A stretch of 62,339 nt of DNA, counting the filler, from Basidioascus undulatus (Eukaryota): the NCBI GenBank assembly GCA_000826855.1. It is 8 parts of 8 records of this genome, joined end to end, with 100 filler letters (N's around TTAATTAATTAA, not from the genome) between each part and the next. Parts side by side here need not be neighbours in the genome. Positions count along the whole stretch, not along the records: positions 15,673 to 23,403 come from JTLS01001503.1; 7 more parts are not named here. One strand, 5' to 3'. Below the pieces are notes generated by a model. That model was not told the origin of the DNA, did not search any database, and saw only the letters and a program-made list of their open reading frames with translations. Positions 18,118-39,040 of the stretch are shown one piece after another (position 1 is the first letter of the stretch; every line of letters starts with the position of its first letter). The position numbers and the translations under genes were made by a program.

Positions 18118-19214
18118 ATGTCACGTCCCGAGCACATTGCCCCGCCCGAAATCGTGCGCTTGTCGCTTGAACATTCATAGCGGCAGCGCCTCAGACCCTG
18201 ACAATGCGCTCCTCCGCTCCTGCAGTTCTACGGCGACACCGAAGCCAAGAAGTACACGGCAAACACCCGCATTCAGGCAATCCAGGCCGAGATGACGTAC
18301 CGTGCTCTGGAGCTGCTCAACCTTCCCGACGACGAGCCGAAGCTGCTGCTGGATATCGGGTGCGGGAGCGGGCTGAGTGGAGAGATTTTGGAGGAGGAGG
18401 GACACACCTGGGTCGGCGTGGACATCTCTCCGAGCATGTTGGGTGAGTCGAGGCTGAATAAGTTCCTTACACATAGACCAACTGACGGGCGGGAGCAGAG
18501 GTTGCGATCGATCGGGAGGTTGAGGGGGACCTGTTTTTGCAGGACATCGGGCAGGGCTTCGGTTTCCGGCCAGGTAGCTTTGATGGCGCGATAAGGTGGG
18601 TGGATGATCCATTGGAATGGGTCTCCGCGCATGTCTCCGCTCACATTCCTAATTCGCCATCTCACAGCGTCTCTGTCCTGCAATGGCTCTGCAACGCCGA
18701 CTCCTCCGACCACTCCCCTCCACAACGACTCAACCGCTTCTTCTCTACCCTTTACGCCTCCCTGGCCCGCGGCGCCCGCGCCGTCTTCCAATTCTATCCC
18801 GAATCCGACGATCAAGTGCATTTCATCATGAGCATTGCCATGAAGGCCGGCTTCGCGGGCGGTCTCGTCGTGGACTTCCCCAACTCGCGGAAGGCGAAGA
18901 AGTTCTACCTCTGCTTGTTCGCAGGCGTCGACCCGAGGCGCGTCGAAATGCCGAAGGGGCTGGAGGGCGAGGGCGAAGAGACGGTGGACTATGAGGCGCG
19001 GCGCACGAGGGAGCGCAAGAACAAGGGCAAGGGCAAGCGCAAGAGCGTAAAAGACAAGGACTGGATCCTGCGGAAGAAGGAGGTGCGCTACCATCGCCCT
19101 GTTCTTGCGAGGGGAGCTGATCCGATGTTATTGCAGCTCTACCGCTCCCGCGGAAAGGAAGACGTTCCTCGCGACTCGAAGTACACCGGTCGCAAACGTA
19201 GAACCGTCTTCTAG
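18118..19214 (+). CDS. BUD23: 18S rRNA (guanine-N7)-methyltransferase Bud23/WBSCR22; 4 introns
   Basis: [89 protein letters not shown]. Confidence 0.97.
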
Positions 19215-19491
19215 ACTTTTCGCTGTTGCATCGCTACCTGTATTCTACCACTTGTATCTGCAATAATACCCACGCACATCACTCTTTGCGGTCAATTTGA
19301 GACTGGCGATTGTTTGACGCCTGCGTTCCGGCAGCCGCGGTCGCTGGAAGCCTGAAACGCGCGAATCCAGGGCTTAGGATCGCGGCGCGACTCGCCCCTC
19401 TTTGTCTTCTCTCTCACCTTCAGCCCTTACCTCGCTTGATTCCCCCCACCAAGAGCTACTGACGACTTAACGAAGGTTACGATATCTGGAT

Positions 19492-22400
19492 ATGCCGAGT
19501 ATCTTTGAGCGCGCCCACCCCCCCCGCTCAGCTTCCGAAGTCCTGGAGGAGGTGCGCACGTTGAACGGCTGACGGTGCACGTTACGAGGCTCATCCTGTA
19601 CCTACATTCACAGCTTCGGAAGGCCGAAGCTCGTCGGCAGGTTCTCAGCAGGTCCGCTCAAGCTGGACGTGCTCATCTCATTAGTGTACTCATGCTGAGC
19701 ATCCGCACACGCACCATAATCACCCGCACACGCTGCTTCACTTCGCTTCGAATCTCGTTTCGACTTCATCACATACTCGCTATCGCGACGTCGACGAGCT
19801 TACAGGATAAGCTGGCTTCCCGATATCTTCCGCATCAAGGGATCGACTCTGCCGTTTGTCGCGGGTACGTCCACAGCGACACATGGAACGTCTGCGCGCC
19901 CCACTGACCCTTTCAAGCAGGTCCGGTGCTGACGATGACCCTCGTGCGTGCAATGCACTGCAGCGTTCTTGTATCTCTTGTATCGATGCGCTCACCGCCT
20001 CTTGCCTATAGATCGCAACTGCGGTCGCGGTGGCTAGCATGGTGTACGGGAAGAATCTGGGTAAGAGTGCCCATTCCCTTGCATGGTAAAATGCTCATGG
20101 TTTTCCTGCAGGCTTGACGAACTCGGTCGGTAAGTCGGCGTGGCTATTGCCGGATGGGCGAATGGCTCTGATCATTCATTGACAGTTCCGCTGCTCTCGG
20201 TCGTCGTCGGCTTGTTGCTGGTGTTCCGTAACGGGACTTCGTACGACAGGTACATCAGAATTGCGAAGAATATCATCCGGCGGCCCAACTTACCGCTCCT
20301 GTGCGTTTCCAAGGTATTACGAAGGGAGAAGAGGTGCGCGGATTCGTTCTCCAGCAAGCGCAAGTCCTGTCTAGCTCAACCACAACGCCCATAGACTTCG
20401 GGCAGCTGGTGATTGGACTTTCCAGTTTGTTGAAGAATTGAAACGTACGCTGACGTTTTCGAGGGCCAGATGTCGAACGTGCGCTTCTTGACCGCTCGCG
20501 CTGTTGAGCCGTCGTTGCTCACCTTTTCTTCTGGTAGGTCCGCAACCTGGTGAGTCTGGAGCCATATCATGAGAAAACCCAGCACTTACTAACCGTTTCC
20601 GGAAATATCCAGGCCCGTCTGACCTGGATTCAAGTCGTTCCGAAGAGCGAGCAGGCGCATCCGGCGCGCCTTTTGCCCATCTCTTTCGGAGGGGGCCACG
20701 AGGGACCTGCACCGGCTAATGAGGAGACGGAGAAGGCGAGGGCGCTGCGGGAAGACAAGGCTCGCGCACTGCGACTCATGTGGGATCCCATGTCTCATTT
20801 TTTCCCTTCGGCTTCTGCTCAATGTCGCGGCCTGGTAGGGTCGGATTCGTCTACGCCACTATCCGTTCGTATTCTGGCTTTTCGGAACACTGCTTTCTTC
20901 AGTAACGCGTTCCTCGGCAGACCACCTTCGCGGCGAGCCAGAAGCGGACCTCGAGGACTATGATGGACTGCGTGGGTCAACCTCAGTCGGCTTTAGATTG
21001 ACACGTAGGACTGTCTTCTGCCTATCCAGTGCCTGATGAGATGCGCCTCGGCGGAACTGGTTACGACGTCAACGGCAATTCGAACCGTAGGGACTACGGT
21101 TCTATGGACGACACCTCATCTGGCGGCGCGAGCGGGACGAGCACCCCGCGTCAGTCGACAACGTCGTCGCGGAGCACCATGACCCCGGCGCGCGAGCGCA
21201 AGCCGCTGCTCGTTACAACGTGCGTCCCAGGGCAGGCTGAAGCGCTGAATCTAACAGTGCTGACCATCCGCCTGTCGCAGTCATCAAGCTATATCGATCA
21301 AGTTCTTCCCGCATGCTCCAACGATGCCGCTGCCGCTCCTGTAGGCACGGTTCCATCATGCTAGTGGAGAGAAGCCGAGTTTCTGAACTTCCCCCAGGAT
21401 CACGTTCGAGCTCACGAGGATCTTTACCAAGTGGAAGCGTGAAGGATGCCGTGCGCGTTTGTGGCCTAAACATCCTGTTCTCAACTGATCTTTGGCTTTT
21501 TAGTTGACGCTCTCGGGCCTGCTGGTACGTCGACTGATACTCGACCAATCCCGAAGTACACGCTTATCTGAACTACAATTACAGGCTTCAACCAACTTCA
21601 AACTCTCATCGGTGGGCTGAACGACCAGCTGCAGAATCTGGAGAGGGTAAGGAAGGTCCTTGCGGGTGCATTTACGCCTGGTTGAATGTCCGCTGACTGT
21701 TCGATCGTGCATGCCGAGTAGATCGCGCGCACTCCTATGTCTGTATCCGTCTCCCTCTTGAAACCCAGCGACAACCCGCTGACCACTCCCTGCAGTCCGA
21801 TCGTTTACGGGATCCACTTGAAGCAATGCGTGTCATTCTACCTCTTTGCTCTCCGTATGTCCGCACCCTGCACCAGACATTGTCTACCACGCGTTGACCT
21901 CGTGCGAGCTTCCGAGGACGCAGCTTTCACGTAAGCAGCACGGAACGTGCGCAACATGTATTGAACTTTCGCTGACTTCGATGCATTAGCCTGGTCGGAG
22001 ATCTTGGCTGGAAGGTCAGCCGACGTTCCTAGACGCGCGCCCTTGCCGCTGCTGATGAACAATGCAATCGCGCAGATGATCCCGTAAGCTTCAGGTCTCT
22101 TCGCCCACTCGAACAGAGGGCTGATACTCCTCCGCAGCTTCGTAACGCTCATCTCGTTCACGCTGATGGATAAGCCCTTTCCACCCCTGTCCTTCGCACT
22201 CTCAACGAGCTGACACCCCCTGCCCCAATGCACGGATCGAGGGAATTTGTATGCATCCTATCTCTTCTTGCCATCCTTTTGAAGCTGGACGCTGAATCTT
22301 CGCCCGCCAATACGACAGCAAGCGAGATCGAGAACCGTGAGTCGTTCTGATGTTCCTCGAGCGATTGCGATAACATTGACAGGCTTGATGTGATGCGCTT

Positions 22401-22632
22401 CAGCCTTCGGCCATGACGAGAACGACCTGCCGCTCGACCTTTTTGCTGCGGAAATCAAGCACGAGCTCGAGTGCGCATTGTAGCCCCTCGTGTCTATACG
22501 AGTACTCTGTTGAGACTGATTCCCCGCTTCGTTGTGGACAGATACTACATTCAAGAGTACTGTGCTCGTCTGCGGTTCATCCGATTTTGTGTGCTGACTG
22601 TCGCCGGCCTCCGCAGGCTGCCCGACAACTAG
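19492..22632 (+). CDS. Bestrophin-family (UPF0187/YneE-type) anion channel; about 30 exons
   Basis: Manual splicing gives VPLLSVVVGLLLVFRNGTSYDRYYEGRRDFGQL, LERIARTPIPIVYGIHLKQCVSFYLFALPFTLV and FTLMGIEGISSEIENPFGHDENDLPLD. Confidence 0.92.
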
Positions 22633-22999
22633 ATGCCACTAGTCGATTCGGCTGCTGGTCAGCTCTCGGCTGCTCACGCACTGCGCTCTCCGCCCCTCCG
22701 CATCACCCTGTCACGGCCTGTCCGCATTCCGCACCTCGCACGACCTGCTGTTGCATCGCCACATTCATCTCATCCTCTCATCTTGGTCTCAGTTCAGCGC
22801 TGTCGAGTCATATTCATCAGTCTATGACAGCGTGTAGCCATAAACGAGTGCATGTCAAAGCGAGTGTCTTCGTCAGCATTCCAGTATCAAAAGGGAAACG
22901 AAAAAGCTCCCATAAATCCCAGCATACACTGCATCTCCATTGCCATTGGTTCCACGCCTCCCCGTTCTCTATACAAAGCATCTAATCCAAATACAACCC

Positions 23000-23403
23000 C
23001 TAGCATTCAACGATCTCAATAGTGGGCACCTGCATCCTCACGACGTCCTGGACCCCCGGGAACGCATCAAGCATGTCCTCCACGCTCTCCTCCCACTCGC
23101 CATCGTCGCTTCCCTCGTCGTCCGCCAGGCGCGAGTCGCGGCACCCCGCCTCCCACTCGGACGTCCGCTCGGTCTCCCAGTGCGTCCACGACCACGAGAG
23201 GGACAGCGCCCCGAGCGCGCCAGGGTCGATCGAGTCGCGCAAGTCGCTCGCTGCGATGGTGTCAGAGGTGCTGGGGATAGTGGGCAAGGAGGAGGACGAG
23301 AGGCGCGCCGGGAGGGTCGAGCGCCGGGCGCTCGGACTGTTGTCGGCGCGGAGGGAGGCGCGCTTGGTATGCGAAGAGGTGCCGGAGGCGGAGAAGGAGA
23401 AGA
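23000..23403 (-). CDS. 3' end of hypothetical protein, truncated by contig edge
   Basis: Frame is open from the linker to the stop at 23000 (...MLDAFPGVQDVVRMQVPTIEIVEC*), with coding-like GC3. Confidence 0.55.
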
Positions 23404-37548: not shown

Positions 37549-39040
37549 CTAGCAAAGCCCCGCAACCTCCTCCAACAGCTTCTTCACCTCCCTCTTCACC
37601 TCCGGCGCATTCGCCTTCCCCAGCAGCGTCGCGCGCGCATCCAACACCTCCAACAGCGGCTGGAGGGTGTCTGCATAGCGGGGGGAGAGGTGCACGAGGT
37701 GTGCAAGGGCGGCTGCGAGGCGGTGCACTATGATGCGCAAACCCAACGTCAGCTGACAAAACAATCGAAGCGGGAAAAGAGCGCGACGCACCGGCCTCCT
37801 CATTCTCCTCCCTCCCCAGCGCCTCAACCAGCGCACTAACCACCTCCGTCTCCCACTCCCCATCCTGGTCCTCGGCGCCCTCCTCCCCCTCCCTTTCCCC
37901 CTCGCCCCTCTTCTCCCGCCCGTCCTCCGCGCGCTTCCCCCGCACAAACGCTGCCACATTTACCGCCAGACTGGCAGCGGCCGTGCGCACGCCCGCATCG
38001 CTATGCAGCAGCGCGCGGACGAGGAGGGCCGTGAGGTCCGGGCGCGTGTGGTCCGGAGAAAGTACGCGCTGCGCGAGGAGCGTGTGCGCGAAGGAGTTGG
38101 AGAGGAGGCGGAGAGCGGTTAGGGCTGTGGGGCGCGGGAGGGGCTCGGCGTCCGGGAGGGAGGCGAGCGTGCGCAGGATGGAGGAGAGCGGGTCAGAGGT
38201 GGATGTGCCAGCAGAGGACTCGACGGCAAGGTAGGACGAGACCGTCTTGTCTAGGACGCCGAGGCGGAGGAGGTCGAGGACAGGGAAGAGCTCGGGCGGG
38301 TGCAGCGCCCCGAGGAGGGAGGAAGAGGCGCGCTCCCAAGCGTGGATTACGTCGGGGGTGAAGGTCGAGCTTTGGAGAGCGGGGATGATGGTGGTCTCGA
38401 GGGTGGAGAGGGCGTCGACCGGCGCGGAGGGGAAGGAGCGCAGCTTGGCGAGGAGCGCGGTGTAGTCGGGCGGGGTGGTGAAGAGGATGGGCTGCGTGGG
38501 GAGCGCCCGGATGGTCGGGAGGGAGAGGGAGGCGTGGGGGTGAGCTGCCGGACATTGAGTATTACGGACCTTGCGTCAGTGAGCAGGCTCGGAGCGAAAG
38601 GAAGTAGAAAGGGAGACGACACGCACGAGGGAAAGCAGTAAAGATCAGCAGATCCACCGCCGTCCTAAACGCCTTCGCGTCCGCCCCGCGAACCTCCTCA
38701 TATTTCTCGCCCCTCAAAAACGTGATAAAGGTGGGAGTCGCCCTGACCCCATACCGCTCCGCGATCTGCCCCGCCATCCCGACCCCCAAATCGACCTTCA
38801 CAAACGCCGCGCGGTCCGCGTGTTGTCGCGCGGCGTCCTCGAACGCAGGCGCGATGATGCGGCACGGTGCGCACGTCGCGGAGGTGAAGAATGCCACGAC
38901 GCAGGTGTGCTGCTGCAGGAGGGAGAGAAACGTCTGGAGCGAGTTGGGCGTGTGGATGGAGGAGGAGGGGGTGCGCGCGGAGGCGGCTTGAGCCGCGACG
39001 GCTTGGAGGAGCATTGAGGCGATCGGGGAGGGTCCGCCGC
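37549..39040 (-). CDS. Thioredoxin-PUL domain protein (PPPDE/DeSI-Trx-PUL family), 5'-truncated
   Basis: Thioredoxin VAFFTSATCAPCRIIAPAF...YGVRATPTFITF; PUL-like LFPVLDLLRLGVL...VRTAAASLAVN...VHRLAAALAHL; runs into the linker. Confidence 0.85.

Follow-up and report, generated by a model that had tools for sequence, protein, structure and literature searches.

Introns that begin with AT and end with AC but are removed by the ordinary spliceosome (type II AT-AC introns) have been described in human SCN4A and SCN5A, and the SpliceRack set comprises 15 human, 6 mouse and 3 Drosophila examples (PMC1557818). AT-AC introns make up 0.019% of annotated fungal introns (PMC7072748). Ganoderma lingzhi carries 13 of them (0.014%), one of which, in the DNA polymerase delta gene, was confirmed by Sanger sequencing; the paper assigns no spliceosome to these introns (the term 'U12' is absent) and never names bestrophin (PMC11590231). 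The nested AT-AC intron of Saccharomyces cerevisiae RPL30 does not follow the type II consensus and yields an isoform that makes up 1–2% of the mRNA (PMC5029451), and an AT-AC intron was engineered in yeast by Parker and Siliciano in 1993 (cited in PMC5029451 and PMC11585973). We found no paper pairing 'bestrophin' with 'AT-AC'; further cases from fungi may be tabulated in the supplements of PMC7072748 and PMC11590231. A search for literature on 'AT-AN' introns in Rhodosporidium returned no paper; the Rhodosporidium toruloides genome paper was considered as their source and set aside, as the string 'at-a' is absent from its main text, and in papers on Malassezia and Coprinopsis AT-AC occurs just as one of the permitted types.

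The intron analysed here lies in a bestrophin gene of the fungus Basidioascus undulatus and belongs to a rare but already known kind, most likely the type II class long known in animals, and it reveals no new mechanism. With the animal type II introns it has in common the AT-AC termini and a donor that is otherwise U2-type (ATAAGC, the consensus being ATAAGT); it differs from them in being fungal, 64 nt long, placed in a bestrophin gene and found in a lineage without minor introns, and its putative use of the U2 machinery is read from its splice signals. Like the Ganoderma introns, it is an AT-AC intron from a basidiomycete and upsets gene prediction, and both genomes have an AT-donor intron in the DNA polymerase delta gene, possibly at different sites. 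The parallel with RPL30 and the engineered yeast intron, as far as these sources describe them, is AT-AC splicing with an A-C terminal pair in a fungus that would have no minor spliceosome; unlike the RPL30 junction, that of bestrophin has to be used for the protein to be made, and it is close to the consensus. U12-type AT-AC introns share with it the terminal dinucleotides alone, since no ATATCCTT donor, TCCTTAAC branch site or minor snRNA was found here.

The bestrophin gene and its AT-AC intron

The window, i.e. the whole stretch of 62,339 nucleotides that was analysed, consists of eight contigs of about 7.7 kb each, separated by seven linkers (N runs around a 12-nt spacer) across which genes are unreadable. 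The bestrophin gene sits on one of these contigs (G000:C561), in an assembly of 32.1 Mb in 2992 contigs. The following features, all on the plus strand, are given in coordinates of the window:

19492..22628, plus strand: Bestrophin_2 (PF25539) gene; 30 coding exons, 424 aa, with 28 GT-AG introns and one AT-AC intron
22138..22169, plus strand: upstream exon, 32 nt, a piece of spliced contig record 5
22170..22233, plus strand: AT-AC intron, 64 nt, phase 1 in the Gly382 codon; intron 25 of 29
22170..22175, plus strand: 5' splice site ATAAGC, matching the type II consensus ATAAGT at 5/6 and the U12 consensus ATATCCTT at 4/8 positions (both consensuses taken from PMC5029451)
22209..22214, plus strand: U2-type branch motif GCTGAC, recognised as a motif only; predicted branch A at 22213 (-21)
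22231..22233, plus strand: 3' splice site CAC (YAG with G>C), seen in the sequence and in the spliced contig
22234..22248, plus strand: downstream 15-nt microexon, followed by a GT-AG intron at 22249-22318

The 30-exon model was built from the joints of a spliced public run (X3, see below) and by inspection, and some of the 5' microexons (51 letters between 20252 and 20612) were positioned by length only. Two of five exon pieces match the family: exon 20185-20250 scored 28 bits with PF25539 (cut-off 27), and a second search with this profile gave 28.8 bits. The gene product is 39–48% identical to all 120 listed homologues (the best 120 of 314). These were retrieved via an exon of a paralogue, and the named set is skewed to Agaricomycetes by its seed, P0126; homologue searches using single exon frames of the bestrophin gene itself produced no match. 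One homologue (P0151) matches solved bacterial bestrophins with an E value of about 1e-20; the gene product is a putative pentameric anion channel.

Upstream of the bestrophin gene, on the same strand, a gene at 18119-19215, presumably BUD23/WBSCR22-like, carries a methyltransferase motif (one exon was scanned, without a Pfam match). Downstream, the minus strand at about 23000-23403 holds what seems to be the 3' part of a convergent gene, truncated where the contig stops. The bestrophin gene is very fragmented, with internal exons as small as 7, 8, 9, 12, 14, 15 and 15 nt; microexons of such size are described as common in mushroom-forming fungi (PMC12230235).

The AT-AC intron at 22170-22233 is genuine: it is present in the DNA and is excised at exactly these borders. 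The proof comes from the reading frame together with the transcript; the motif alone does not rise beyond chance. The flanks of the intron (G|A and C|G) make sliding of the junction impossible. A script that combined GT, GC, AT or GA donors at 22158-22181 with AG or AC acceptors at 22218-22245 returned three frame-keeping, stop-free junctions (AT-AG, GA-AG and AT-AC), none of them with a GT or GC donor, and the AT-AC junction is the only one to retain the residues G-I-E. The two other candidates, GA-AG (22169-22241) and AT-AG (22166-22241), lose G-I-E and are absent from the spliced contig. Spliced alignment of a Mycena (agaricomycete) homologue, which is independent of the gene model, selected exactly 22170-22233, with a score of 322 when AT-AC was permitted versus 281 with GT/GC-AG only. 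The residue whose codon is split by the intron, Gly382, is glycine in 143 of the 144 homologues aligning over the region (150 fetched), and the surrounding nine-residue motif is intact in all 120 homologues listed in the second search (the best 120 of 314 matches). Retention of the intron leads to a stop 15 codons past Met381, i.e. to truncation inside the conserved core.

Three public runs hold the stretch (X1, X2 and X3), none of which is listed as RNA. X1 and X2 provide one DNA contig each, spanning 19600-22900 with zero differing letters; they come from two studies, possibly both of the source strain, and exclude assembly error while saying nothing on polymorphism. X3 is marked 'DNA?', yet splicing at intron borders is evident in its contigs (13 of 15 tabulated joints are GT..AG and the other two bridge small exons; the AT-AC joint is not one of these 15 and is read from the letters of a single record). 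In record 5 of this run (825 nt), exactly the 15 letters of 22234-22248 stand between 22169 and 22319; the pieces up to this point total 567, and the next begins at record position 568, as the exon chain requires. Because both the letters and the coordinates of record 5 match the exon chain, the AT-AC junction is used in the transcript, the RNA support being one contig from one run, which comes without strand or read counts.

The preliminary description had placed the intron at the same coordinates, with the same sequence, donor ATAAGC, branch motif GCTGAC and CAC end. Its view that the junction does not slide and that no GT-AG or GC-AG solution keeps G-I-E is confirmed by the flanks and the script, sequencing error is excluded by the identity of X1 and X2 over 19600-22900, the predicted splice is the one found in record 5, and its expectation that gene predictors would mis-model the intron is borne out by the erring GT/GC-AG-only alignment.

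At 64 nt the AT-AC intron compares with a median of 61 nt for introns of this gene, its branch distance (-21) falls within the range of the gene, and its donor agrees with the U1 target at 4 of the 5 places from +2 to +6, a level reached by 11 of the 29 donors. The acceptor reads ...TGCAC. All three features of the type II class that were tested are present, namely AT and AC termini in a spliced transcript, a donor that is U2-like apart from +1, and a U2-type branch motif at a normal distance. A U12-type character, which had also been denied in the preliminary description, was not detected: the donor matches ATATCCTT at only 4/8 positions, the best branch-site match in the last 40 nt is 5/8, and the best TCCTTAAC-like match anywhere in the intron (6/8) lies 44 nt from its end and is without both As. 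Judging from these signals, the AT-AC intron is therefore very probably of type II (U2-type), and it would be the ordinary major spliceosome that excises it.

A genome-wide pattern for AT-AC introns gave 1033 matches versus 1224 for the reversed control, so that such introns cannot be counted by pattern. One further candidate, in the DNA polymerase delta gene (G000:C1829, L059, minus strand, 670-584), was read from the sequence alone: an 87-nt phase-1 intron, ATGAGT...CAGCAC, for which a frame-keeping GT donor was not found and which has an in-frame AG acceptor 3 nt upstream of its AC end. A further part of this gene lies on C1556, and those of its introns there that were read by eye appear to be GT-AG. 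Stretches of FKBP genes read by eye at four loci, one of them cut by a contig end, contained no AT-AC intron.

Paralogous introns and the history of the termini

Three bestrophin paralogues were identified in the genome. The one on contig G000:C2303 has a 62-nt GT-AG intron (38517-38578, L020) at the same codon and in the same phase as the AT-AC intron, and it shares with the AT-AC gene 8 of the 17 intron positions in its model, which was likewise drawn from sequence alone. The Gly382 codon is uninterrupted in the other two paralogues, which are more distant. The C2303 paralogue is fast-evolving and its C-terminal acidic motif is altered. In a FastTree analysis the proteins of the AT-AC gene and the C2303 paralogue are sisters (support 0.90), beside Agaricomycetes, with branch lengths of 0.33 and 1.07, respectively, and the protein of the AT-AC gene groups with agaricomycete homologues with a support of 1.0; the tree holds 33 sequences (the two models plus 31 homologues, picked by similarity and name from about 270 that were fetched) and is without a close relative of this organism. 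Proteins of Wallemia and Atractiella are among the best matches of a paralogue exon; from these and from the tree the organism is taken to be a basidiomycete. A metagenome pattern scan for orthologous introns yielded 31 hits, none of them in bestrophin (best tblastn E 1.2).

Since the intron of the C2303 paralogue interrupts the matching codon in the matching phase and is GT-AG, the termini switched in one copy, probably after a duplication within basidiomycetes. An intron at this site would predate the duplication that gave the two genes, and the more likely course would be that GT-AG gave way to AT-AC by way of an intermediate with a single substitution, itself poorly spliced. A GT-AG ancestor is thus favoured, on the basis of the frequency of GT-AG introns and the intact agaricomycete annotations, with the direction read from two gene copies. 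We tentatively propose, as one possible history, that, following the duplication and in a lineage with the major spliceosome only, two compensating substitutions turned a GT-AG intron into an AT-AC intron that is obligatory and is today removed with about the efficiency of the canonical introns next to it. The natural double-substituted intron of the preliminary description fits the GT-AG intron at the paralogous site; the direction of change assumed there is not fixed by it.

A different past can be envisaged, in which the intron is a relic of the minor (U12) type that kept its termini and acquired U2 signals on the loss of the minor spliceosome, with the paralogue completing the conversion to GT-AG. 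Such a relic would still be U2-spliced today, so that it rivals the proposed history and not the mechanism. Its phase would suit this origin, minor introns being biased away from phase 0 (PMC10639083), and so would the presence of AT-AC in the slowly evolving copy and the AT-donor intron of DNA polymerase delta in the same genome. We nevertheless consider it unlikely. No trace of a U12 donor (4/8) or branch site (best 5/8 in the last 40 nt) is left, and the two more distant paralogues are intronless at the Gly382 codon. An AT-AC intron spread across the phylum would, moreover, often break the motif in annotations, most of which are automated, whereas all 120 agaricomycete homologues listed keep it whole; this is a weak argument, drawn from the best 120 of 314. 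The switch from GT-AG after duplication is retained as the preferred reading.

Retention and expression

The preliminary description had further suggested that the AT-AC intron is possibly rate-limiting for channel expression. Weak termini would then slow its removal, and retention, which would truncate the protein in its conserved core, would limit or tune the output of the channel. Experimental work offers a precedent, as G1A is rescued by G-1C and the compensated pair is spliced less efficiently (PMC1557818). We estimated retention by subtracting the exon pieces from the depth table of X3 (26 bins). The exon pieces accounted for 24 of the 26 bins, including that of the AT-AC intron (observed 11.4, expected 11.4), and the two unexplained bins both fall at another intron:

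20972..21029, plus strand: GT-AG intron 15, retained in the RNA run in record 4 (20942-21059); retention shifts the frame into stops

The retained arm at intron 15 has a depth of 44.4, and subtraction gives about 22 for the spliced arm. This visible arm indicates that the X3 assembly can reveal abundant retention. The AT-AC junction, in contrast, lies inside an unbranched spliced contig, and its depth leaves no remainder for a retained form, which differs from the lower efficiency of the A-C pair reported in PMC1557818. The depth comparison is weak evidence against a regulatory throttle, coming from one sample in which contigs drop rare forms, depth is rough and NMD could hide retained RNA. 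There is no sign that the AT-AC intron regulates the channel, and a throttling role appears improbable, more so than a U12 ancestry; the claim of rate limitation is not upheld. Intron 15 appears to be a better candidate for limiting expression. Its donor is weak.

The spliceosome involved and the meaning of the finding

Searches of the genome (an assembly of 2992 contigs) for U11 and U12 genes gave no match at E<=1, and those for U6atac gave three weak hits, all under the cut-off, two of which are U6 genes; each snRNA search scored about 40–48 candidates, the set searched being U11, U12, U6atac, U1 and U6. This was a check proposed in the preliminary description, and it brought up no minor snRNA over the cut-off. 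The four U1 matches (L008-L011) are below the Rfam cut-off, and all four have the canonical 5' end. Among the five U6 matches (L005-L007, L070, L071), three of which are cut by contig ends, the canonical ACAGAGA box is present in four, and the fifth is cut before the box. A profile search with PF18036, which we take to be U11/U12-25K, gave no match anywhere, controls included, and so carries no information. The minor spliceosome is likely to be absent from this genome.

On the major spliceosome, the donor would be read by U1, then by U6, via positions -1 and +2 to +5, all of which match the consensus; U2 would pair with GCTGAC, and the A at -21 would act as the branch point. In the second step, the first and last bases of the intron would form a non-Watson-Crick A-C pair replacing G-G, so that the two changes would compensate each other. 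PMC11585973 describes such a pair of terminal bases, normally G-G, and A-C in AT-AC introns. The earlier attribution to the U2 machinery agrees with the major-type signals and with the failure to find a minor snRNA, and dependence on this machinery is what we infer from them.

Splicing by a surviving, diverged minor spliceosome or by a variant snRNP is very improbable: the AT-AC termini, the fragmented assembly and the limited number of scored candidates speak for it, but the donor and branch site are major-type, no minor snRNA exceeds the cut-off, no variant U1 or U6 occurs among the copies read, and surveys report Basidiomycota without minor introns (PMC10639083; PMC11347168). An artefact (assembly error, a template switch of the reverse transcriptase or RNA editing of the termini) is scarcely credible even though X1 and X2 may both derive from the source strain and a 4-nt repeat is present at both ends (22168-22171 and 22234-22237), as X1 and X2, from two studies, are identical at every base, a switch at the repeat would delete 66 nt and shift the frame whereas the contig has a 64-nt junction, and editing, to which nothing points, would require two unrelated changes.

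A predictor limited to GT/GC-AG introns swaps the conserved G-I-E-G-I for intron-derived residues, and the annotation of this gene therefore needs correction by hand. The bestrophin intron adds a transcript-backed, obligatory fungal example to the small AT-AC class, and the GT-AG intron at the same position in the paralogue provides a ready pair for testing the switching of termini and the cost of the A-C pair. If the proposed history is true, the two paralogues would represent a natural before-and-after of a terminus switch without U12 ancestry, and basidiomycete spliceosomes would accept an A-C terminal pair at little cost.
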